Assembly: GCA_965215365.1 (NCBI GenBank)
Contig: CBDCDS010000003.1
Span: 2,400,001 to 2,464,000 of the forward strand
DNA length: 64,000 bases
From: Gammaproteobacteria bacterium
GTDB lineage: Bacteria; Pseudomonadota; Gammaproteobacteria; Eutrophobiales; Eutrophobiaceae
Direction of reading: 5' to 3'
Position 1 is the first letter of the stretch. Each line of letters starts with the position of its first letter. The position numbers and the translations under genes were made by a program. Shown here piece by piece: positions 5,539 to 23,564 of this stretch. Below the pieces are notes generated by a model. It saw only the letters and a program-made list of their open reading frames with translations. It made no database searches and was not told the DNA's origin.

Positions 5539-6231
5539 TCAGTTAACCCGCCTGATTCCCAGCCTCCCCTCACTCAACTCATACACCTTATCCAGTCGCT
5601 GCAGCAGGCGGGTGTTGTGGGTCACCATCACCAGGCTGATGCCGTGGGTCTTGTTCAGCTCCAACATCAGTGAGAAGACCCGCTCGGCAGTCTGTTCGTC
5701 CAGGTTACCGGTGGGCTCGTCCGCCAGTACGCAGCGCGGGCGGGTCACCAGTGCCCGGGCAATGGCGGCGCGTTGTCGCTCGCCGCCGGACAATTCCCCC
5801 GGTTTGTGTTGCAGGCGTGCGGCCAGCCCCACTTGTTGCAGTATATCCGTGGCCGCGGCGGCGGCGGTTGGTGGCGCCTCCCCGCGCACCAGCAATGGCA
5901 ACGCCACGTTCTCCAGCGCGGTAAACTCCGCCAGCAGATGGTGGAATTGATAGACAAACCCCAAGGTCCGGTTGCGCTGGCGACCGACCTCCGCCTCGGA
6001 CAGCGTCGCCAGCACCACCCCATCCAGCGTTACTGTCCCGGCACTGGTTTTATCCAGCCCGCCCAGCAGGTGCAGCAAGGTGCTCTTGCCGGAACCGGAC
6101 GAACCGACAATACCAATACAGGCGCCGGCTTCCACTTTCAGCTCAATGCCTTTTAATACCTCCACATGCAGGTTGCCCTGGCTGAAGGTCTTGCGCAGGC
6201 CGGAACAGGCCAGGGTAATGGGATTACTCAT
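5539..6231 (-). CDS. lolD: Lipoprotein-releasing ABC transporter ATP-binding protein
   Basis: [35 protein letters not shown]. Start moved to MSNPITL (6231), overlapping the upstream stop. Confidence 0.95.
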
Positions 6232-11864: not shown

Positions 11865-13913
11865 TTACCTGCCGGTATTACCGTCAAGCCGACCTTCATG
11901 CCCGCGCAAAAACACTTCCACCGCCGCTAACTCGCTGGTATGTCCCATCTTTGGCAGGCTGTTCAGGAAAGTTCTGCCGTAGGGCTTGGCAGTCAGCCTG
12001 GGGTCGCCGATCATCAGGATGCCGTAGTCGTTGCGGTCACGCAGCAGGCGGCCGATACCTTGTTTCAGGGTCAGCACTGCTTCGGGGACCTGGTATTCCA
12101 AGAACGGATTACGGCCCTGCTCCCGCATGCGGGTCAGCCGGGCGTTCAGGACCGGGTCGCCGGGGGACGCAAACGGCAATTTGTCGATGATCACGCAGGA
12201 CAGCGCCTGGCCGCGCACATCCACGCCTTCCCAGAAACTGCTGGCGCCCAGCAACACCGCATGGGGGGTAGTCCTGAAGGTTTCCAACAGTTCGGTGCGC
12301 GGCGCCTCTCCCTGCACTAGGGTGGGGTAATCCAATGCCGCGCTGACCTGCTCGGCAGCTTCCCGTAGCGCCCGGTGGCTGGTGAACAGGAAAAACGCCC
12401 GCCCCCCGGTCAGGCGTAGTAGCGGCAGCGCTGTTTCCACCAGTCTTGCGGTGAACTGCTGCGATTTGGGCTCGGGCAGGCCCCGGGGCAGGTACAACAG
12501 AGACTGAGCCCGGAAATCGAACGGGCTCTCCCAGCCGCGTGCCGGCGCCTGCTGCAGACCCAGTCGCGCGGAAAAATAGTCAAACCGTTGTGCCACGCTC
12601 AGGGTGGCCGAGGTAAACACGTTCACGCACTTCAGCTCCTCCATGCGCGCGCGGAACAGGTCGGCCACATCCAACGGGGTCTGGTGCAGGTAAAAATGCC
12701 TGCCGCGCAGCTCCAGCCAGTGGATACAGTCGGGCGGCGCGCCCGGCGCGGACAAAGCCTCAGACTGCGACAACAACGCCCGCTGTTCCGCAGCCGCCAG
12801 CGTGCCTGACGCAGGCATGTCCGCTCCTTTTGAGGGTGCGGGGTCAGCATTCTTCACAAACCGCCCCAACAAGGCCAGCGCCGCGCCGGCCCGCTTGCAG
12901 CAGTTATCCAGCGACTTGCCTCTGGCGGCAAAGTCCGATAACGCCTGGCGCACCTTGCCCAGCTGCGCCACCAGCCCCGCCAGCACCGCAGCAACCTCTG
13001 CCCGCTCTTTCACCTCGGCCCAGACCAGCCGGCTGTCCTCCCTGGGAAAGGCCAGACGCAGGTCACGCGCGGCCTTGTCCAGGCCATCCAGCAGCGCTGG
13101 AAAATCCGGCAGGTCTGCCGCTTCCTCATAGTACGCAGTGCGCGCGTCAGACACCAGCTCCAGCAGTTGACGGCTGCTCAAGGTCTCACTGAAAAACTGT
13201 GAGGCCAGTTCCGGCAACTGGTGCGCCTCATCGAAGATGAGCACCTCGACAGACGGCAGCAACTCGCCGTAGCCGGCCTCTTTCAGCACCATGTCAGCCA
13301 GAAACAGATGGTGGTTGACCACGGCCAGATCCGCGTCCACAGCCCGACGGCGGGCGCGGAACACGAAACAGTCGTCGTAGAAATCACACTCCTGGTTCAG
13401 GCAGTTATCCGCGCTGGAAACACAGGCCGTGCGCACCGCTGAGTCTTCCGGGATGTGGGTCAACTCGGCCAGATCACCGCTGTCTGTGCGTTGTGACCAG
13501 GCGCGCATATCAGCCAGATAGCCGCGCGCCTGCCGGCCCAGCCGGTGCCCATCCAGCTCTGCCAGTTGTAACCGGTGCCAGCACAGGTAATTCGCCCGCC
13601 CCTTGAGCAACGCCACCTTGAGTGCCCGCCCCACGGCCTTGCGCACCAGCGGCAGGTCGCGGCTGAACAACTGGTCCTGCAAGTGCTTGGTGCCGGTGGA
13701 GATGATCACCTTATGACCGGACTGCAACGCCGGCACCAGATAGGCAAACGTCTTGCCGGTGCCGGTGCCGGCCTCGCAAATCAGCGTTTCCCCGGCGTCA
13801 ATCGCGGCGCGAATAGCCTCAGCCATTTCCACCTGCTGCGGCCTGACGGAGTAGTCATCGATTAACTCCGCAAGAATCCCTTGCGCGCCCAAGATGTCGG
13901 CTGGTGTTTGCAT
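11865..13913 (-). CDS. yoaA: ATP-dependent DNA helicase, DinG/YoaA family
   Basis: EAGTGTGKT, Fe-S cysteines, DEAH, SAT, WEGVD, QGIGRLLR. Confidence 0.9.
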   Translation of the reverse strand: MQTPADILGAQGILAELIDDYSVRPQQVEMAEAIRAAIDAGETLICEAGTGTGKTFAYLVPALQSGHKVIISTGTKHLQDQLFSRDLPLVRKAVGRALKVALLKGRANYLCWHRLQLAELDGHRLGRQARGYLADMRAWSQRTDSGDLAELTHIPEDSAVRTACVSSADNCLNQECDFYDDCFVFRARRRAVDADLAVVNHHLFLADMVLKEAGYGELLPSVEVLIFDEAHQLPELASQFFSETLSSRQLLELVSDARTAYYEEAADLPDFPALLDGLDKAARDLRLAFPREDSRLVWAEVKERAEVAAVLAGLVAQLGKVRQALSDFAARGKSLDNCCKRAGAALALLGRFVKNADPAPSKGADMPASGTLAAAEQRALLSQSEALSAPGAPPDCIHWLELRGRHFYLHQTPLDVADLFRARMEELKCVNVFTSATLSVAQRFDYFSARLGLQQAPARGWESPFDFRAQSLLYLPRGLPEPKSQQFTARLVETALPLLRLTGGRAFFLFTSHRALREAAEQVSAALDYPTLVQGEAPRTELLETFRTTPHAVLLGASSFWEGVDVRGQALSCVIIDKLPFASPGDPVLNARLTRMREQGRNPFLEYQVPEAVLTLKQGIGRLLRDRNDYGILMIGDPRLTAKPYGRTFLNSLPKMGHTSELAAVEVFLRGHEGRLDGNTGR

Positions 13914-13976: not shown

Positions 13977-16900
13977 TCAGGCCGGTCCGGGTGGGGTGCA
14001 ATCTACCGCGCATACGGAAATTTTTTTTCGTTCCTCATCACTATCAAGCAACCGGCTCAATCGTGCTTCGAGTTCTCTCGGTGTTGCGGGTTTGGGGCCG
14101 CCTTCGGGAGGTGGCGTGGTCTTTTCAGGCCCGAACCAGAATACCAGATATATGCCGTAGCCGTATGCCGTTGGGTCTATGGTGTAGCACTCGATCAGTT
14201 GCTTTTTGAGCCCATGCCAGAGGTCTTTGCTGTCATTGCATTTGATCTCGATGGGGAGGTTATAGCTACCCAATGAAACCCGGATATCCGCCCGTCCTTC
14301 ATTGGCATAACGCCCTTCAGGCTGCGTGTCGACTTGCATGTTTTCGAGCAGCGGCCTGAGGTCGGACAGGAATCGATCGCGACAGGTTTCTTCATGTTGG
14401 CGAGTGACAGGATATTCTCTCCAGTATTGTCGAAAATCATTTGTGTTGCCGTGTTTTATTCGCTCGGCCAATTCCCGAATGCACTCGTGTGTTATGCCAG
14501 CCAGATCGGCAACATTGGCCGGAGGGCCATTATTCAGGGCAGAACGCACCTGCTCCAGGTCGGCATATCTGAACATGGCCTCACGTTTGGCCGTGCGTTG
14601 GCTATGCAGCGTCCGTCTTAACATGGGATGCCATTTTGACAATTGGCCTGATTGGAGCAAAGATTGAATTGCGTCAGTACCTTCGTCCCCCAAGAAAGTG
14701 GCCAGTCGGGAAACCAGTTGCATAACTACCTCTGAGGCATCATCCGAGGTCGAAACAGGCGTATAATAAGGACCCAGCAGCGCCACCATTAGCGACACCC
14801 CCGGTAAAGACAATTTGTCGACAGGCTGCCATTGCTCGCTACGACAGGACAGGAATCCGCTTAAATAACTTATGCATGCTTCTTTCCCTGAGACAAATTC
14901 GGTCAGCCGTTGGGCGAATTGTTCCGGCGCAAGAATGATGCCGGCAGCCATCCATAGTGTGCGCTGTGCCGCGTCCATACTTTTCAAAGAGAGTTTTTTC
15001 TCGGTTAATTGTTTAAGGCTATGATGATCTGCATACTGCAGCGCGGCCGCTAACAGGTCATAAAGCGGAGCAAGTTGTACTGATGTGCTTCGTGCCCGAA
15101 AACTCTCAAGTAGCGGTAGCGCAACAGCGGCGGCCAGCTGTCGGTGATTGTCATCAAAAGCAAGAGCGTAACTGCCGGCAAGATGCGTCTTGCCTGCTCG
15201 CAACGCCATGGTGCCATACATGGTGTAAACTCTGGCTACGAGCTGTGGTCGCTGCAGCAGCAGGGTTTCATACCATTCGCTTTTCTCTGTTGCATCGACG
15301 AAATAGAAGGCCAGCGCTTTTTCGATTTTATCTTCGCTCAGTTGCAGCAGTGTTTGCATCCCGGACCTTGCCAATTCATCCATTCCTGCTCGATAAGGGT
15401 GAGAAGAAACCAGATATTTATTATCTGCGTGCGCTTGTAGTATTTCTTTGACATCCGGGATGTCTTCCCGCTGGATGAAGCGTTGCAGGCCGCTTAACGT
15501 GCTTTGAACCAAGCCAATATCGTTATTAAAAAAGTGTGTCAGGCGTGCGCGCGGATGATCACCTCTCGACTCGATAAAATAACCATAATAGGCTGAGGCT
15601 AATTTGCTGAATAGCGCGGGTTCTGCCGTACCTGCTTCAATCTCTCTTAAGTTGTTCTGCAAATATTGCAGGAACGCCTGTTTGGCCTGTTCTCTCTCAT
15701 TTCTGAGGCGTTTGCGCGCACGGTTGGACTGGCCGTACTCGGGGCTGATTTCCCTTACCCGGTTTACCTCCCAATACTGTTTGAGGCAACGGTCCCTTGC
15801 CACAGCTTCTTCTACCCGTTCTAGGGACATGCCAGCACTTCCGTTTTCTGAAAACAGAGTTGAGAGGCTCTGTGAAAAAAAATATTTACGGGTGTTTTCA
15901 TCATCACAAGTCACAGCCTGAGCAAGACACCAACGGCCATAGTCTTCCGGCAAATCCGAATTAAACAACTGCGCGCTGATTTTAGAGACATAACAGTGTA
16001 AGTCATCTGCCTGCCCGCATTTGTCCAGCAGGGAAGCAACCAGATCTTTTTGAATTTCCGGGTGTTGCTCCAACCATTTTCTAATGCGCGTGGCATCCGG
16101 GCGCCAAAGTAAAATCGAGTCGTACTCATCAAGCCCCAGCCCAAGCCAGCCCAGCAGTCTTGTCGTTGCCACATCGGCGCCGTATTTTTCAACGCCTCTT
16201 GCCAGCAGGTTGCCGACCATGGCCTGATAAGTATCTTCATCAGAATCGCGCCGCGCCGGCACCGGCATCGTTACCAGGGCATCGAGAAGCCGGGGTATCT
16301 GACTATCAGTGGACAGTCTGGTTAACTCATCGCCCCAGAAGGAGTGATATGTGCCAATATAATCCAGCTTTTTTGGGGTTCGATAATAATTGAATATCTC
16401 GTCCGGGGTAATCCGGTGCGGATATTGAGAAAGCAGTAATTGCCCCAAGAGCTCATCATCCGGGTCAGGGATAATATCCCGGTGGATATCCGCCAGGATT
16501 TCCTGCACAGTCTGTTTATCATTGAAACGGAGCAACACTGCTAGCGCCCGTTTCCTGTTTTTCGACCAGCAATCGCGATTTTTAAGCAGACTGGTCAATG
16601 CGCCTGCTAATCCCGGCAGCGCCACGCCGTGAATCATGGACGCCAGCACATAAGCAAGCAGGTATTGATGCGTATCACTGTGGTCACGGGATTTAAGAAT
16701 ACTCAGATATTCCTGCTCCATATCAGTCTGACAAAACGCGCCGAAAGACTGTGTGTTCCGATAATCAACGCCAATATTCCCTGCTTGTTCGGCATAGTTG
16801 CTCAACTCGTGCAATAGTTTAAGACGGTCTCCTTTATTGAACAGACTGACATCGCCGTACAAAACCACTCCGAGCGGGTCGCGTTGCATCAGTTTATCCC

Positions 16901-17585
16901 GCTCAGTATGGCAAAGCGCAGCAATCCAGGCATAAATACCGCGCAATTCGGAAACTGTTCCACCGTCGGCTCCCGTTATGAGCGCTAACACCCGCCCGAC
17001 TGGCAACGCCTCCTGAACGATTTTATTCGATAAATAATAAGCGCCCAGGTATTCCGCAAAAATACGGTGGCTGTATTCAGTGTGTCCATCATGCGTGACG
17101 AACAATCGTGTTCCTGCTACCCGTTGCAGTAAAGCCGGACTGCCATCTGCCAGGTCACCTATAAAGGGATAATCATCATTTGCATTGGACCTTATTAAAG
17201 CAAAGCCTGATTTGCGCGCCAGCAGCATCACTGCGCACAGCATACCGGAGGCCTGCATCAGTTCTTCAGCGGGAGGAGTTTGATTACGGTGAGCAATGTT
17301 ATGAGTTGGATTTTTTTCCAGTAACAATTTTTCGCAGGCCAACCGGAAAACATCTGCTTTCCTTTCAGGCCACTGGCCTCCTTCACCCACGGCTACCACC
17401 AGCATTTCCAGGATTTGCGGGTTTTTGATTAACTCACTCAATCCTCGGTGTTGTGCCCCTTGCAGAAATGAAGATGCGTTAGGCTCTGTTTTATGGTGAT
17501 TCCTGATCAGGACTTGCAGTAAGTCTTCCTCTGTGAGCTCATCTAAGAACAATTCCTTAGTCGGCGCATAATAATTCATAGTCAT
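13977..17585 (-). CDS. Large STAND/NACHT-like protein lacking the N-terminal P-loop; helical body and C-terminal PD-(D/E)XK-like nuclease
   Basis: Begins with the post-Walker-B region (NPQIL helical motif, SHRIFAEYLGAYYL winged-helix motif). C-terminus EETCRDRF...RADIRV...PIEIK...GYGIYLVFWFG. ATG at 17585 overlaps the upstream TGA (ATGA). Confidence 0.7.
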   Translation of the reverse strand: MTMNYYAPTKELFLDELTEEDLLQVLIRNHHKTEPNASSFLQGAQHRGLSELIKNPQILEMLVVAVGEGGQWPERKADVFRLACEKLLLEKNPTHNIAHRNQTPPAEELMQASGMLCAVMLLARKSGFALIRSNANDDYPFIGDLADGSPALLQRVAGTRLFVTHDGHTEYSHRIFAEYLGAYYLSNKIVQEALPVGRVLALITGADGGTVSELRGIYAWIAALCHTERDKLMQRDPLGVVLYGDVSLFNKGDRLKLLHELSNYAEQAGNIGVDYRNTQSFGAFCQTDMEQEYLSILKSRDHSDTHQYLLAYVLASMIHGVALPGLAGALTSLLKNRDCWSKNRKRALAVLLRFNDKQTVQEILADIHRDIIPDPDDELLGQLLLSQYPHRITPDEIFNYYRTPKKLDYIGTYHSFWGDELTRLSTDSQIPRLLDALVTMPVPARRDSDEDTYQAMVGNLLARGVEKYGADVATTRLLGWLGLGLDEYDSILLWRPDATRIRKWLEQHPEIQKDLVASLLDKCGQADDLHCYVSKISAQLFNSDLPEDYGRWCLAQAVTCDDENTRKYFFSQSLSTLFSENGSAGMSLERVEEAVARDRCLKQYWEVNRVREISPEYGQSNRARKRLRNEREQAKQAFLQYLQNNLREIEAGTAEPALFSKLASAYYGYFIESRGDHPRARLTHFFNNDIGLVQSTLSGLQRFIQREDIPDVKEILQAHADNKYLVSSHPYRAGMDELARSGMQTLLQLSEDKIEKALAFYFVDATEKSEWYETLLLQRPQLVARVYTMYGTMALRAGKTHLAGSYALAFDDNHRQLAAAVALPLLESFRARSTSVQLAPLYDLLAAALQYADHHSLKQLTEKKLSLKSMDAAQRTLWMAAGIILAPEQFAQRLTEFVSGKEACISYLSGFLSCRSEQWQPVDKLSLPGVSLMVALLGPYYTPVSTSDDASEVVMQLVSRLATFLGDEGTDAIQSLLQSGQLSKWHPMLRRTLHSQRTAKREAMFRYADLEQVRSALNNGPPANVADLAGITHECIRELAERIKHGNTNDFRQYWREYPVTRQHEETCRDRFLSDLRPLLENMQVDTQPEGRYANEGRADIRVSLGSYNLPIEIKCNDSKDLWHGLKKQLIECYTIDPTAYGYGIYLVFWFGPEKTTPPPEGGPKPATPRELEARLSRLLDSDEERKKISVCAVDCTPPGPA

Positions 17586-18886
17586 ACGAACCACTCTTTC
17601 GGGTCGGTCAGCAAAAAAAAGTCCAGCGGCACACCTTGGGGCCCCACTAAAACTCTATTGTGTGGCTTGAACTGCCGGGTAAAACTGTCCAGCCCGCGAG
17701 CGGGTACTGTGCTGCTTGAGGACTTTACCTCTATGGCGACAATTCGATTCCCCCTGGCCAGGATAAAATCCACTTCGTCATGTCCATGCCGCCAGTAGTA
17801 GAGCTTGCAATCCGGGATGGTGCAGTTATAAAGATGCGCGCCCACGGCGCTTTCTACCAATCGTCCCCAGTAGCTGCGGTCTTGTTGTGCCTCTGCAAAT
17901 GAATAGCCGGATGCTGCACTCATCAACGCCGTATTGAGCACATTGAGTTTAGGGCTGGAGGCACGCCGACGCTGTGGTTGATTGGCATATTTTTCCAGCC
18001 CTGCCAGCAATCCTGCCTGGGTCAGCAAATCCAGGTAATGCGCCAGTGTCGTGGTATTGCCCGCGCCCTGGAGTTGTCCCAGCATCTTGTTGTAGGACAA
18101 CTCCTGCCCTGAATAATGACACCCCAGCTCAAACAGGTTTTTCAACAATATTTTCTTGTCAACCCGGATCATCATGAAAATGTCTTTCCTGATATTCGGT
18201 TCGATTAACGAATCCCGCACATAGCTCGCCCAACGCTGTTCATCGCGAATGTACTGAATGCTGCCGGGATAGCCGCCATAATAAATGTACTGCAGCAGGT
18301 CGATATCAAAGGCGCCATTCATTTCCTCAAATGACCAATGCGTCATGCGTAGCAGTTCAAACCGGCCGGCCAGACTTTCCGTCAGGCCTTGTTGCACCAG
18401 CAGGGGGGCAGAGCCCAGTAAGACGACATGCATGGACCTTTCCAGGGCACGGTCGGCATCCCACAGACCTTTTACCGTCTCCGACCAGTTCTTGATCTTC
18501 TGTATCTCATCCAGTACCAGAACGAAATTTCTTTGCGGGATAGCTTCTGCTTGATTGAGAGGGTCGGGGGGCAGGATGAATTCATCAGCAGCAACACGCG
18601 CCTTTTCCCATTGCGTTACCAGCCAGGTCACATCGTGTTCTGTTGTTCCTGAAGTGATAGCTTTATCGACATCATGCAGAGACGGATAAAGGGTCGGTAG
18701 AGCCGGTTCGCCGATATTATGGTAATGGTAGCAATCAGGCGGATAGTGTTCAGCCAAGGCTCGTTTGACCAGGGTTGTTTTACCAATCTGGCGCGGGCCG
18801 GCAACGATAATTATCCGGCTGACCGGTTCTCGAAGCCGGTCTATTAAGGTTTTTACATGTGTCCGTTGATACGCCATAAACGCCAT
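17582..18886 (-). CDS. AAA_14 ATPase with wHTH and DUF4143 PD-(D/E)XK domain
   Basis: GPRQIGKTT, LVLDEIQ, ESLAGRF, GGYP, EVDFIL...AIEVKS. Confidence 0.9.
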   Translation of the reverse strand: MAFMAYQRTHVKTLIDRLREPVSRIIIVAGPRQIGKTTLVKRALAEHYPPDCYHYHNIGEPALPTLYPSLHDVDKAITSGTTEHDVTWLVTQWEKARVAADEFILPPDPLNQAEAIPQRNFVLVLDEIQKIKNWSETVKGLWDADRALERSMHVVLLGSAPLLVQQGLTESLAGRFELLRMTHWSFEEMNGAFDIDLLQYIYYGGYPGSIQYIRDEQRWASYVRDSLIEPNIRKDIFMMIRVDKKILLKNLFELGCHYSGQELSYNKMLGQLQGAGNTTTLAHYLDLLTQAGLLAGLEKYANQPQRRRASSPKLNVLNTALMSAASGYSFAEAQQDRSYWGRLVESAVGAHLYNCTIPDCKLYYWRHGHDEVDFILARGNRIVAIEVKSSSSTVPARGLDSFTRQFKPHNRVLVGPQGVPLDFFLLTDPKEWFV

Positions 18887-18923
18887 TTTACATCATTGAG
18901 TAAAATTACTCAATGATGTAAAA
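18886..18923. promoter_or_regulatory. Perfect 18-bp inverted repeat (probable operator) abutting the AAA/DUF4143 start codon
   Basis: TTTTACATCATTGAGTAA-AA-TTACTCAATGATGTAAAA. Confidence 0.6.
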
Positions 18924-18947
18924 AAAACGTATTGAGCTGGCGTTATT

Positions 18948-19517
18948 TCAACTTTTTACCCGACTCACGTACTCCCCCGTGCGAGTATCCACCTTGATCT
19001 TTTCTCCCTGCTCCACGAACAGCGGCACCTTGACGGTGGCGCCGGTTTCCAGGGTGGCGGGTTTGGCGCCGCCGGAGGCGGTGTCGCCGCGTACGCCGGG
19101 GTCGGTTTCGGTGATGGTCAGCTCAACGAAGTTAGGCGCTTGTACGGATAGCGGGGCGCCGTCCCACAGGGTTATTGCGCATAGCTCCTCGCCCGTTAGC
19201 CACTGGCCGGCAGCGCCTAGCGCGGCGCTTCCTGCCTCGACCTGTTCATAGGTGTTCAGATCCATGAAATACCAGAGCTCGCCGTCGTTGTAGAGGTACT
19301 GTAACTCCGCATCAACCACATCCGCAGCGGGGACGCTATCGCCGGACTTGTAGGTTTTGTCCAGCACCCGGCCGCTCTTCAGATTGCGGATCCTGATACG
19401 CGTGAACGCCTGCCCCTTGCCCGGCTTGACAAACTCGCTGTCAAGTATGATGCAAGGGTCGCCGTCGATAAGTAACTTCAGGCCCGGCCTGAATTCACTG
19501 GTGCTGTGGTTAACCAT
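18948..19517 (-). CDS. efp: Elongation factor P (PGKG, lysine type)
   Basis: [35 protein letters not shown]; likely start MVNHS (19517). Confidence 0.97.
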
Positions 19518-19772
19518 TGTGTTCCGTGATAAAAAGAGAAACTTAAAAACTGTCGGCGAGCGCATGGTCACGCAGGCGCAATAGTCAGTTACGACCGCTC
19601 CGTGCTGTTATATAAGGTCACCTCTATTAATCAGATGCGCCCTTATGCTCCCGGCGACGCCCGACTCACTGATGGGACTAACCATACCACGATATAAATA
19701 AAATGCCAGCCGGACGTCATACGAAAACAAGGCATGTGGTAAGATCATGCGCCTGAATATAGAAAGCAAGTA

Positions 19773-22421
19773 ATGCAACACTCAAAAGACAATTTTGCTC
19801 ATGGTAGCGCTTGGTTCCGAGCTGATTTTCATCTGCATACTCGGGCGGATAAAGAATTTAGCTACGCTGGAGAGGATAATTATTACTATTCAAATTACAT
19901 CCAGGCTTTGAAAGGAGCCGAAATTGGCATTGGAGTTATAGCCAACCATAACAAATTTGACTTTGAAGAGTTTAAGGCACTGAAAAAAACCGCTCTGAAA
20001 CAGGGAATTTTTCTCCTACCCGGTGTGGAATTGTCGGTTAACGACGGCAGTAATGGCATCCATACTCTGGTCGTGTTTGCCGATGAATGGATAGAAAATA
20101 ACCACGACTATATCAACCAGTATCTCAATGTCGCCTTTGCAGGGAAAACACCCAACGAATACGAGCATGAAAACGGTCGCAGTTCATTGGCATTGCTCGA
20201 TACCATTAAGAAGCTCAATGGTTATCAGAAAGATTTTTTTCTAATTTTTGCTCACGTTGAGGACAGAAGTGGCCTATGGCATGAGTTGGAAGGCGGCAGG
20301 CTTCAGGAACTGGCTGACAATGAACTCTTCTGCAATCATACGCTGGCTTTTCAGAAGGTGCGAACCCATGATGTCTCAGACCGTAAATGCCGGCTCAAAG
20401 TACAGGACTGGTTGAAAACAGCTTATCCGGCCGAGGTAGAGGGTTCTGATCCTAAGTCTGTTGCGGAGATTGGAAGGGGTGAAAAGTGCTATCTCAAAAC
20501 CGGCGCGTTTACCTTTGAAGCGATCAAGTATGCGCTTTTGGATCACGAAAATCGTCTGGTTTCGGAGCCACCTGAATACAAACATTCACATATCTCGAGC
20601 ATATTCTTTGAAGGCGGCATACTGAACGAAGAGATCATCAGGTTCTCTCCTGAACTTAATACATTGGTTGGCATTCGCGGCAGTGGTAAATCTTCCGTCT
20701 TAGAGGCGATTCGGTACGCGCTTGATATCCCATTTGGAGAGAAAGCGCTGGATACAGATTACAAAGCCGATCTTATTGAACATGTATTGGGCAGCGGAGG
20801 CAAAATAACACTTAATGCAGTCGATCGATGGGGACAGCAATACGAAATACGGCGCATCAGCCGGGAGCGGCCGGATGTTTATGTTGACGGCAAGCTCCAA
20901 CCCGGCATTTCCATTCGGCAGACTGTTGTACATAAACCTGTTTATTTTGGACAGAAAGACCTCTCTGCTACCGGAGAGGGCTTCGAAAGCGATCTCGTAG
21001 AAAAACTTGTGAGCGAAAAATTGACGGGGATACGTTCTGACATCGCCGAACAACGTCAAAAAGTGATCGATCTCGTTAACAGGTTGAAGAAACTTTCAAA
21101 CACAGAAGAAAAGAAAAGGGAGTACGAAGGCAAAAAACAGGATGCTGAATTCAGGCTGGATTTCTATAAAAGACATGGGGTTGAGGAAAAGCTCCAAAAG
21201 CAGGTTGATTTTGACGCTGACTCCAGAAAATGCAGGCAGCTCACTTCCTTTATCAAAGGTTATATTGAGGATTTGCAAGCGTTTATAAATCAATATGAAG
21301 ATGACTTGAAAAATCAGCAGAGCTATACCTCCAGACAGAACATTGCATTCTTTGACGAGTTTTTTTCTCACTACAAAAAACTGCTAATTTCTTTTGACAA
21401 CATAAAAACGGAATTGACGGTAAGCAGGCAAGTATTGAACGGACTCGATAAAAAAGCGCAAAAATTTGACTCATTCAAGGAAGATCTAAAGGAAGAATTT
21501 GCCCGGGTAGAAAGACAACTTGCCGACCACCTGAGAGAAGGGGGAGCGCAGGCCATTCACACTGGCGAGTTCCACCTGCTCAGAAAAACTGTAGAAGATG
21601 CCACAAAAATACTCAGGGAACTGGCAAAAGAACAGATAATTCGGTCTGAACTGGAAGGTAAACTGATAACGGAACTCACCGAATTTAATAATCTCCTGCA
21701 CAAGGAATTTACCGCGATAAAAAGTGAACTGGAAAAAATCAATCAGAACCATTCGACCATCCGGATTGAAGCCGAATTTAAGGGAGACAAAGATGCTTTT
21801 CTCTCATTTATGCAGGATATATTTCGAGGAAGCCGGCTGCGGGAAGCGACCTTAAAAAATCTTGTTGGTAGCTTCGCTGATTTCGGCGCCATGAAAAAAG
21901 AATGGGCAAGAGTTAAAAGCAACTTAGGGACTTCTCTGCAGATATTTGAGCAATTTTTTGAAGATAACTTGGAGACTCTGCTAACCTGGCAAGTGCCCAA
22001 TCGCTTTGTCATTAGCTACCGTGACAAGGAACTTAAACGACATTCTTTGGGGCAACGAGCCTCAGCATTGATCCTCTTTATTCTCAGCCAGGAAGAGCAT
22101 GATATTTTTATCATAGATCAGCCGGAAGATGACCTGGATAACCAGACTATTTACGAAGATGTCATTAAATCCATCCGGTATTTGAAGCCGGGAACACAGT
22201 TTATTTTTGCCACCCACAACGCCAACTTTCCAGTGTTGGGTGATGCAGAGCAGGTTATCGCCTGCTCTTATTCCGATGATAAACTCGATAAAATTGAAGG
22301 AAGCATCGACCAGCCTGAGCTCCAGCAGAAAATTATCGACATCATGGAAGGCGGCAAGGAAGCATTCAGACAACGCAAACGCAGATATGAAACATGGAAA
22401 CCACAGAACTCCTCGAAATAA
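19773..22421 (+). CDS. PHP-like phosphoesterase fused to a coiled-coil ABC/SMC-type ATPase (TrlF/Ppl-like)
   Basis: DFHLHT, NHN, GVE, AHVE, GSD metal-binding motifs; Walker A GIRGSGKS; signature SLGQR; IIDQPEDDLD; ATHN. Confidence 0.85.
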   Translation: MQHSKDNFAHGSAWFRADFHLHTRADKEFSYAGEDNYYYSNYIQALKGAEIGIGVIANHNKFDFEEFKALKKTALKQGIFLLPGVELSVNDGSNGIHTLVVFADEWIENNHDYINQYLNVAFAGKTPNEYEHENGRSSLALLDTIKKLNGYQKDFFLIFAHVEDRSGLWHELEGGRLQELADNELFCNHTLAFQKVRTHDVSDRKCRLKVQDWLKTAYPAEVEGSDPKSVAEIGRGEKCYLKTGAFTFEAIKYALLDHENRLVSEPPEYKHSHISSIFFEGGILNEEIIRFSPELNTLVGIRGSGKSSVLEAIRYALDIPFGEKALDTDYKADLIEHVLGSGGKITLNAVDRWGQQYEIRRISRERPDVYVDGKLQPGISIRQTVVHKPVYFGQKDLSATGEGFESDLVEKLVSEKLTGIRSDIAEQRQKVIDLVNRLKKLSNTEEKKREYEGKKQDAEFRLDFYKRHGVEEKLQKQVDFDADSRKCRQLTSFIKGYIEDLQAFINQYEDDLKNQQSYTSRQNIAFFDEFFSHYKKLLISFDNIKTELTVSRQVLNGLDKKAQKFDSFKEDLKEEFARVERQLADHLREGGAQAIHTGEFHLLRKTVEDATKILRELAKEQIIRSELEGKLITELTEFNNLLHKEFTAIKSELEKINQNHSTIRIEAEFKGDKDAFLSFMQDIFRGSRLREATLKNLVGSFADFGAMKKEWARVKSNLGTSLQIFEQFFEDNLETLLTWQVPNRFVISYRDKELKRHSLGQRASALILFILSQEEHDIFIIDQPEDDLDNQTIYEDVIKSIRYLKPGTQFIFATHNANFPVLGDAEQVIACSYSDDKLDKIEGSIDQPELQQKIIDIMEGGKEAFRQRKRRYETWKPQNSSK

Positions 22422-23539
22422 TCAGCGGTGGCGAAGATAGCCGGCACCAGTTCAAAGCAAATGTGACCAATGAAACAACATTGGCTCAGGAAATGGTTGC
22501 ATTCAGTAACTCTGGCGGGGGTTCTGTTTTCATTGGAGTCAGCGATGACGGAACGTTAGCCGGTCTCGATGGAAACGATATTGCGCGTCTCAATCAACTT
22601 GTTTCTAATGCTGCCTCTCAGCATGTCAAGCCGGCGATCAATCCTCGGACAGAAAACAAGATAATTGAAAACAATCATGTAATACGGGTAGTCGTCCCTG
22701 ATGGTATTCGTAAGCCCTACATGGATATAAATGGAGTAATCTGGGTAAAGTCGGGATCAGATAAACGTAAGGCCACTTCCCATGAAGAAATTCAGCGTAT
22801 TTTTCAAAGTGCAGGCTTGATTTATGGAGACAAAATTCCCGTGTCGGGGACGAGCTTGACAGATATTGATTTAGATTATTTCAAAAAGTTCTTTGACAAG
22901 CAGTTTGGTACACCGTTGGAACAGCAGGAAGTATCACTGCCACTTCTCCTGCAGAACATGAGTCTGATGAAGGATGGGAGACTGAATATCACTGGCGTGT
23001 TACTGTTTGCCAGAGAACCGGGTTTCAAACTGCCTGTCTTTATTATAAAAGCTATTGCCTTTCCCGGTGACAAAATCCACGCCACCAACTACCGCGACAG
23101 TCGTGATATAACCGGGAAGCTAGCGGATGTTTTCCAGCAAGCAAGGAGCTTTGTTCTTGGAAACATCAGGCACAAGCAGGGAAGGCAGGGTGTAAACGCG
23201 CCCGGACTTCCAGAGATTCCCGCGGTTGTGTTGGAAGAGCTCATTGCCAATGCTCTTATTCATCGTGATTACTTCGTGTCTGCACCTGTGCGAGTTTTTG
23301 TGTTTTCCGATCGGGTGGAAATCATAAGTCCCGGTCATCTGCCCAATAATCTCACAGTTGAGAACATTAAACTGGGAAACTCAAATATTCGTAATCCTAC
23401 TTTAGCGTCCTTCGCGACAAAATTGCTCCCCTATCGCGGACTAGGCAGCGGTATTATCCGCGCACTGCAAGCATACCCACATATTGAGTTTGACAATGAC
23501 CGCGATGGGAATCTTTTTAAGGCCACCATCAGACGGTGA
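22394..23539 (+). CDS. Schlafen/AlbA_2 domain plus HATPase_c_4 (RecG-C-like) protein
   Basis: GEDSRHQFK, VAFSNSGGGSVFIGVSDDG; EELIANALIHRDY, IISPG, NIRNP, GLGSG. Overlaps the upstream gene by 28 bp. Confidence 0.85.
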   Translation: METTELLEIISGGEDSRHQFKANVTNETTLAQEMVAFSNSGGGSVFIGVSDDGTLAGLDGNDIARLNQLVSNAASQHVKPAINPRTENKIIENNHVIRVVVPDGIRKPYMDINGVIWVKSGSDKRKATSHEEIQRIFQSAGLIYGDKIPVSGTSLTDIDLDYFKKFFDKQFGTPLEQQEVSLPLLLQNMSLMKDGRLNITGVLLFAREPGFKLPVFIIKAIAFPGDKIHATNYRDSRDITGKLADVFQQARSFVLGNIRHKQGRQGVNAPGLPEIPAVVLEELIANALIHRDYFVSAPVRVFVFSDRVEIISPGHLPNNLTVENIKLGNSNIRNPTLASFATKLLPYRGLGSGIIRALQAYPHIEFDNDRDGNLFKATIRR

Positions 23540-23564
23540 GATCTGCGGGTTAACCATAAGCTCT

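Follow-up and report, generated by a model that had tools for sequence, protein, structure and literature searches.

A partnered Erebus (EruA)/Avs10-like cassette whose large gene has an in-frame deletion across the predicted nucleotide-binding core

A 64,000-nucleotide stretch of a Gammaproteobacteria bacterium genome of the family Eutrophobiaceae (assembly GCA_965215365.1, contig CBDCDS010000003.1, positions 2,400,001 to 2,464,000; hereafter the window, to which all coordinates refer) carries, at 13977-18923, a cassette that reads as two genes on the minus strand: a partner gene encoding an AAA_14/DUF4143 ATPase, followed by a large gene that resembles those of the Erebus (EruA) antiphage family. 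Relative to its syntenic orthologue the large gene lacks 402 nt in frame, and with them nearly the whole of its predicted nucleotide-binding core. The reading favoured here, with a probability of about 0.7, is that the locus holds a recently disabled allele, dead as a nucleoside triphosphatase (NTPase), belonging to a partnered Avs10-like system, rather than the new "split" design that was proposed in a first-pass annotation of the same DNA. The missing P-loop would then be a lineage-specific deletion in a known antiphage family, which corrects a tempting reading of the locus as a new architecture.

The EruA-like gene with the internal deletion lies at 13977-17585 on the minus strand (stop codon 13977-13979), and its translation, of 1202 aa, is uninterrupted by stops. 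A pattern scan found no Walker A or Walker B motif in the protein, as the first-pass annotation had stated for an open reading frame (ORF) of 1200 aa intact over 3.6 kb. Of the motifs singled out at that time (L..L...D, NPQIL, HRIFAEYL and ADIRV...PIEIK), the last three are all present, and an alignment to relatives places them on family-invariant columns (N55/P56/Q57, H173/R174, D1100, E1113 and K1115). The further idea that the ORF starts at the end of a NACHT core was right only in part: post-core elements do follow, but the first eight residues, MTMNYYAP, are the native N-terminus of the family (MSLNYYAPR in relatives), and the break is internal, between codons 8 and 10. At that point the protein skips, in the alignment, the block that contains GxPGxGKT, LFIDGLDE and RLSCREADW, and picks up again at ELFLDELTEEDL.

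The extent of the gap was defined by pairwise DNA alignment with the syntenic orthologue (locus L001), which comes from the genome of a sister species in the same genus (G006). Bases 5597-5998 of that locus (402 nt, 134 codons) have no counterpart in the window; the junction is at 17560-17561 on the minus strand, where orthologue residues 9-143 are gone and a hybrid ACT (Thr) codon stands in their place. The two sequences are colinear all the way from the helicase gene, across the two genes of the cassette, to efp, with approximately 87-89% DNA identity that is alike on both sides of the gap. By comparison with the sister sequence, the two ends of the deletion share no more than 1 nt of microhomology, and no repeat-mediated mechanism is evident.

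What the deletion takes away can be read from an AlphaFold model of the first 520 aa of the orthologue (mean predicted local distance difference test score, pLDDT, 91.8; predicted template modelling score, pTM, 0.88), which matches the NACHT structures of NOD2, NLRC4 and NLRP3 in Foldseek with a probability of 1.00, E values of 1e-8 to 1e-5 and 10-15% identity. Lost with residues 9-143, on this model, are an N-terminal hairpin, the strand that carries Walker A (37-42) together with its helix, one further strand, the strand of Walker B (82-86) and a strand at 117-122 (RLSCR), presumably sensor-1, with flanking helices. Only the last core strand (144-148) and all that lies beyond it are left, so that the deletion, as modelled, takes out nearly the whole nucleotide-binding core. 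The remnant of the NACHT module, delimited by the alignment and the AlphaFold model at 16851-17558 on the minus strand (lower boundary approximate), consists of that last core strand, the helical domain and the winged-helix region with NPQIL and HRIFAEYL. The animal NLRs NOD2, NLRC4 and NLRP3 and the bacterial Avs4 have NACHT modules onto which the first 520 aa of the orthologue can be superposed; the present proteins differ from these in having a C-terminal effector and a helical sensor in place of leucine-rich repeats, and the window allele differs, in addition, in lacking the nucleotide-binding part.

Sequence comparison assigns the large protein to EruA (Erebus)/Avs10, a family of antiphage NACHT sensors that end in a PD-(D/E)XK nuclease, and this protein is therefore not an unrecognized one: it matches the NCBIfam model NF058535, "NACHT domain-containing antiphage protein EruA", with an E value of 6e-241 and 803 bits over positions 131-1317 of the 1318 in the profile. 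NF058535 is an equivalog model with a curated cut-off of 1000 bits, and the window copy falls under it mainly because 130 profile positions are missing. Full-length members of its clade score 921, 941, 1000 and 1040 bits, and thus straddle the cut-off; the lowest of these values belongs to the full-length sister protein P0007, which aligns to profile positions 17-1317. No significant Pfam match was obtained for the large protein, be it the window copy or a full-length relative, no PADLOC model matches it, and a sequence search of the chains in the Protein Data Bank gave nothing useful for either cassette protein.

The original Erebus paper is reportedly that of van den Berg et al. 2024, Cell Host Microbe 32:1427. 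Erebus, Hypnos (HyoA) and bNACHT64 are grouped as Avs10, which is triggered by the HK97-fold major capsid protein of phages, enveloped by the helical sensor of Avs10 (PMC13581612; preprint PMC12803255). The window protein is alike this group end to end from profile position 131 to 1317 and shares its order of parts, NACHT, long helical sensor and C-terminal PD-(D/E)XK domain. The elements that follow the nucleotide-binding domain (NBD), namely the helical domain, the winged helix with its conserved His and the long helical sensor, are present and align continuously, as is the C-terminal nuclease domain. The differences are two: the window copy lacks the core, with both Walker motifs, that its syntenic orthologue has, and the clade to which this copy belongs has an obligate AAA_14/DUF4143 gene upstream.

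The C-terminal domain itself, at 13980-14393 on the minus strand, was assigned to the PD-(D/E)XK (restriction-endonuclease-like) type from alignments, in which D1100, E1113 and K1115 are invariant, and from a model of the last 215 residues (pLDDT 84.4). A Foldseek search with that model returned weak rows only, the best with an E value of 7e-3. In an exhaustive VIA-align search the top rows were mostly PD-(D/E)XK nucleases (Can2, BamHI, OkrAI, BstYI, PaqCI, McrC and HamA), with Z 8.1 and a root-mean-square deviation (rmsd) of 2.9 over 113 residues for Can2 and Z 8.0 and rmsd 4.5 over 147 residues for BamHI, values near 8 that the tool's own note describes as middling. These structural neighbours, together with the invariant D...ExK residues, support a restriction-endonuclease-like effector at the C-terminus.

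The core-less form is very rare. Among the 119 best other protein relatives listed from a collection of 5.8 billion proteins (n = 120 with the window protein), nearly all are 1300-1420 aa long, and the closest is P0007, of 1337 aa and 80% identical to the window protein. Every one of the 119 keeps at least one Walker motif, two of them (P0010 and P0074) with variant Walker B sequences; only the window protein lacks both. Two further proteins of 1308 aa, P0029 and P0030, have their start assigned to a Met that lies within Walker A (MGKTT...), which is either a mis-called start or a further N-terminal truncation. At the level of loci, a query with the single protein returned no relatives, and an alignment-based scan of species-representative genomes was used instead, from which 79 related loci were taken (80 of at least 476 EruA-family matches were kept). 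Walker A is seen in 75 of the 76 whose N-terminal region is assessable. With Walker A kept in those 75 loci, and none of the 119 listed relatives devoid of both Walker motifs, the P-loop-less form is a near one-off, lineage-specific deletion and not a recurring architecture.

The single exception is L009, from a Sedimenticola metagenome-assembled genome (L009:1-300), in which 26 unrelated residues are joined to the family at approximately residue 136, near the end of the window's deletion. A stop codon precedes its ORF, and the contig ends 45 nt away, which keeps the partner out of sight and makes further interpretation impossible; this locus may represent another P-loop-less copy or the product of a rearrangement. 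No P-loop is missing in any of the 74 related loci that carry the partner gene, and the recurrence of P-loop-less homologues beside AAA_14/DUF4143 genes, which the first-pass annotation had proposed as a check, was thus not observed. That annotation had also regarded a family of full-length homologues never found beside DUF4143 genes as evidence against its own proposal: the homologues are indeed full length, but they adjoin a DUF4143 gene in 74 of the 79 loci.

Within the genus, copies that match over the full length are found in six other genomes. One of them (L084, in G012), 49% identical, contains one in-frame TGA and is possibly another decaying copy. Elsewhere, open frames of 800-1100 aa in five genomes of the genus (G013, G020, G011, G004 and G009) and in loci L088 and L089 match only residues ~700-1067 of the EruA-like protein, or as far as 1335, with 40-62% identity, and to judge by sequence these proteins may share the sensor region under a different N-terminus.

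The deletion is real. Logan contigs of sequencing runs X1 and X5 span 16800-18300 unbroken, and one of run X6 spans 17423-18300, all with 0 differences and no alternative joint. It might be thought that an error of assembly or sequencing has hidden a full-length gene, as the genome was assembled in 3 contigs and mis-assembly can produce deletions. This is hardly credible, however, with the junction bridged identically in runs from three studies, even though one of the three may be the source sample and contigs of this kind cannot rule out a rare full-length allele. Moreover, neither a second EruA-like copy nor an N-terminal fragment was found elsewhere in the window's genome.

Selection on the shortened gene was assessed with the sister orthologue of G006 and, as outgroup, a third member of the genus (G018). 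Between the window and G006 the ratio of non-synonymous to synonymous substitution rates (dN/dS) is 0.25 for the deleted gene, 0.24 for the partner gene and 0.215 for the helicase gene, with 71, 21 and 18 unique amino acid changes on the window branch, respectively, and 84, 13 and 8 on that of G006. The relative-rate test gives a chi-square of 1.1 for the deleted gene, whose window branch is thus not accelerated, and at 115 columns conserved to at least 95% the window protein departs 3 times, while thirteen intact relatives depart 0-3 times. None of these three measures gives any sign of relaxed selection on the remaining ~1200 codons; relaxation was among the outcomes that the first-pass annotation would have held against its own model. 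As these codons are undecayed, either the deletion is recent relative to the split of the sister species or the shortened protein is still constrained, two possibilities that the data cannot separate.

The partner gene is intact in the window, at 17582-18886 on the minus strand, where its longest ORF encodes 434 aa with an AAA_14 ATPase domain, DUF4143 and a C-terminal (D/E)xK motif. It scores 82.2 bits with Pfam AAA_14 (cut-off 27) and 92.7 bits with DUF4143 (cut-off 28.1), and it matches the PADLOC PDC-S01 model PDLC04791 over its full length (E 1.4e-160, 532 bits), plus six further PDC-S01 models. In PADLOC, PDC-S01 is listed as a stand-alone, untested candidate of a single gene, whereas here the gene is coupled to a NACHT sensor-nuclease under a common promoter/operator. 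Across 71 partner sequences Walker A, D123 of Walker B and E383/V384 are invariant, and K385 is kept in at least 90%. Weak Pfam similarity to the STAND-like or ORC-like ATPases AAA_16, NB-ARC and ATPase_2 stays below all cut-offs. The description of the locus as a two-gene module, in which a NACHT-type protein with a PD-(D/E)XK tail accompanies an AAA_14/DUF4143 ATPase with a conserved (D/E)xK motif of its own, thus stands.

The two genes are joined at 17582-17585 on the minus strand by an ATGA overlap, correctly located by the first-pass annotation, in which the ATG of the EruA-like gene (17585-17583) lies over the TGA of the partner gene (17584-17582), an arrangement that suggests translational coupling and is identical in L001. 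A partner homologue, 50-87% identical, is found directly upstream in the 74 loci mentioned above, and the other 5 have less than 150 nt of upstream sequence (contig ends). The hosts include Gammaproteobacteria, Alphaproteobacteria, Nitrospirales, Latescibacterota, Binatia, Dehalococcoidia, Spirochaetia, Opitutales and Gemmatimonadota, among others, and the stop and start codons overlap in 66 of 73 related loci, by 4 nt (NTGA) in 58 and by 1 nt in 8. In an even sample of 401 genomes of the phylum, 23, the window's included, had an EruA-family match. Of the 16 other loci that could be assessed, only 3 had the partner, the ones closest in kind to the clade of the window copy, and the 4 loci that score over the NCBIfam cut-off were all without it. 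On this distribution the partnered form is, as far as sequence comparison goes, a distinct subfamily, whose full-length members score 921-1040 bits. Across phyla, this large Avs10/Erebus-like subfamily is always accompanied by a co-translated ATPase-nuclease and a conserved palindromic promoter/operator. A description of this partner alongside Avs10/Erebus-like sensors was not found in the literature searched, to which the original Erebus paper did not belong: the main text of the preprint PMC12803255 makes no mention of a DUF4143 or AAA_14 partner, the terms Avs10, Erebus and DUF4143 have 0 occurrences in six supplements of the Nature 2026 paper (PMC13581612), and PMC13069673 does not mention a DUF4143/NACHT pairing.

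It is well known that STAND proteins need their nucleotide-binding domain in order to switch and to oligomerize, and that oligomerization gathers the effector domains. The locus is best explained as a two-gene antiphage cassette of the partnered Erebus (EruA)/Avs10 subfamily, in which gene 1 encodes the AAA_14/DUF4143 ATPase-nuclease and gene 2, translationally coupled to it, a NACHT NTPase with a long helical sensor and a PD-(D/E)XK nuclease. In the window's genome the 402-nt deletion strips gene 2 of nearly its whole nucleotide-binding core and leaves the partner gene intact; with the core gone, the switch dependent on nucleoside triphosphate (NTP) and the oligomerization should fail, and the product should no longer act as an NTP-gated phage sensor.

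Several observations weigh against a disabled allele. The loss of function is itself inferred from the general STAND/NLR mechanism, and an active Avs8 with degenerate Walker motifs has been described (PMC13581612, legend of Extended Data Fig. 11), which means that ATP hydrolysis is not always needed, although Avs8 still has the domain. A random deletion has a 1-in-3 chance of being in frame, and since this one is in frame and preserves the start codon and the coupling to the partner, the shortened protein is probably still made; none of the sequencing runs listed as holding the sequence is an RNA run. Across the 3.6 kb there is no stop, frameshift or excess of substitutions, as selection on a truncated protein would predict too. 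Finally, the identical junction allele occurs in runs of three studies, one of them with only 0.89 of the sampled words, and therefore persists in nature.

Several observations also count in favour of a natural split NLR-like system, that is, a functional P-loop-less sensor-nuclease to which the partner ATPase supplies the NTP-dependent switch or assembly in trans: the deletion keeps the frame, the start codon and the ATGA overlap, the remaining 1200 aa show no relaxed selection, and the allele persists. The partner, for its part, is undamaged, its Walker A, Walker B and (D/E)xK residues are conserved, it bears a faint resemblance to STAND-like and ORC-like ATPases, and 74 of the 79 loci of the clade carry it. 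When the complex between the partner and the NACHT remnant plus nuclease domain was predicted, the outcome lent this model weak support, with a median score of 0.32 (runs 0.00, 0.32 and 0.45) against 0.00 for the best of 3 controls. In the calibration, 116 of the 157 solved complexes and 2 of the 215 mismatched pairs attained this mark, but at 0.60 or less only 18 of the 157 did so, along with both passing mismatches; agreement between the runs covers at least 4% of contacts, the partner has a pLDDT of at least 73 and, unlike the calibration, the prediction had three chains and custom alignments. The distribution of the P-loop speaks the other way. Because the NACHT protein keeps its own Walker A in 75 of the 76 assessable loci, the partner evolved alongside a P-loop-bearing NACHT protein and not as a substitute for it, and the core-less form arose by deletion in one lineage, as comparison with the full-length syntenic orthologue shows. 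By the orthologue model, moreover, the deletion goes beyond the P-loop and takes in four of the five core strands, which would leave no surface for oligomerization between nucleotide-binding domains.

Another way of looking at the preserved reading frame and conserved residues is to assume that the truncated protein has been kept for a different role, no longer as an NTP-gated sensor, but as a capsid-binding decoy or damper that limits the autoimmunity of a related sensor, or as a nuclease or DNA-binding subunit of the partner. The complete sensor and nuclease domains and the persistence of the allele in several samples would agree with this, but the genome has no second EruA-like copy to modulate, no other lineage except the ambiguous contig-end locus L009 has such a form, and nothing positive sets it apart from a recent neutral deletion. 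As for the separate idea that the capsid of a resident prophage selected for inactivation through autoimmunity, no match to the capsid family PF05065 was found in the window's genome (97.6% complete), where other capsid families were not searched. Given that the related loci nearly all keep their own P-loop, both this role and the switch supplied in trans are regarded as unlikely, to the same degree. It would be bolder still to propose that the core-less allele is under selection and that its sensor-nuclease depends for licensing or assembly on the co-translated STAND-like AAA_14/DUF4143 ATPase, and this is entertained only as a long shot; if true, the locus would be a natural two-polypeptide NLR, with sensing and the NTP switch on different proteins, and the uncharacterized partner of the subfamily would be a second switch and not an accessory. 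The window copy amounts to a natural "domain-deletion mutant", and with its full-length syntenic orthologue, ~88% identical in DNA, it makes a ready pair for separating the contributions of the NACHT core and the partner.

The cassette begins with a perfect palindrome, TTTTACATCATTGAGTAA-TT-TTACTCAATGATGTAAAA, at 18886-18923, whose 18-nt arms (18886-18903 and 18906-18923) are 100% complementary and separated by a 2-nt spacer. Its presence had been reported in the first-pass annotation, together with the richness in AT of the cassette, and both are confirmed: the GC content is 0.49-0.52 at 14000-18999 and 0.60-0.65 in the flanks. The palindrome contains a conserved element, TTAC-N5-TTGAGTAA-NN-TTACTCAA-N5-GTAA, placed just upstream of the partner start codon. 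The strict pattern occurs in 54 of 70 related upstream regions, as against 6 matches in the remaining 1.02 Mb of the same loci, and the element can be anchored in 68 of 71 upstream regions, the window's included, across phyla (67 related loci). Its core and outer positions are conserved, while the variable inner positions keep the complementarity of the arms through up to four pair types. This pattern of conservation points to a promoter/operator function for the palindrome in the cassette, and the obvious candidate for its binder would be the partner's own DNA-binding region.

By consensus match only, a sigma-70-like promoter can be placed within the palindrome, at 18885-18913 on the minus strand, with a -35 box TTGAGT (TTGACT in some related loci), a 17-nt spacer and a -10 box TAAAAT. 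In most loci the alignments of the partner start at residues 4-6, and its true start is likely to be Met4, at the second ATG (18877). Since the predicted transcription start falls about at this ATG, where most of the relatives' proteins begin, the mRNA is probably leaderless or nearly so.

On its upstream side the cassette is bordered by efp (elongation factor P; 18948-19571, minus strand; Pfam EFP_N, EFP and Elong-fact-P_C) and on its downstream side by a gene for a DinG-like helicase (11865-13913, minus strand; Pfam Helicase_C_2, DEAD and DEAD_2; synteny with L001 and L082). These genes flank the cassette in the window and in genomes G006 and G018. In all five genomes of the genus that have no cassette, efp directly adjoins the helicase gene, with 52 to ~1100 nt between them, and the cassette is therefore an insertion at a variable spot between the two.

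Beyond efp, a second defence-like pair of genes was noted at 19773-23539 on the plus strand, within a block (19517-23548) of GC content 0.41-0.47 that is entirely missing at the syntenic site of the sister genome. The first gene encodes an 882-aa TrlF-family/Ppl-like ATPase (NCBIfam NF045780, 555 bits; PADLOC Ppl, 8.5e-39), and the second, which overlaps it by 28 nt, a 381-aa protein with Schlafen AlbA_2 and HATPase_c_4 domains. The genome as a whole (G000; 2.73 Mb, 97.6% complete) is at the small end of its genus, in which the listed genomes that are at least 90% complete measure 2.8-5.0 Mb, a size that would fit a tendency toward DNA loss.

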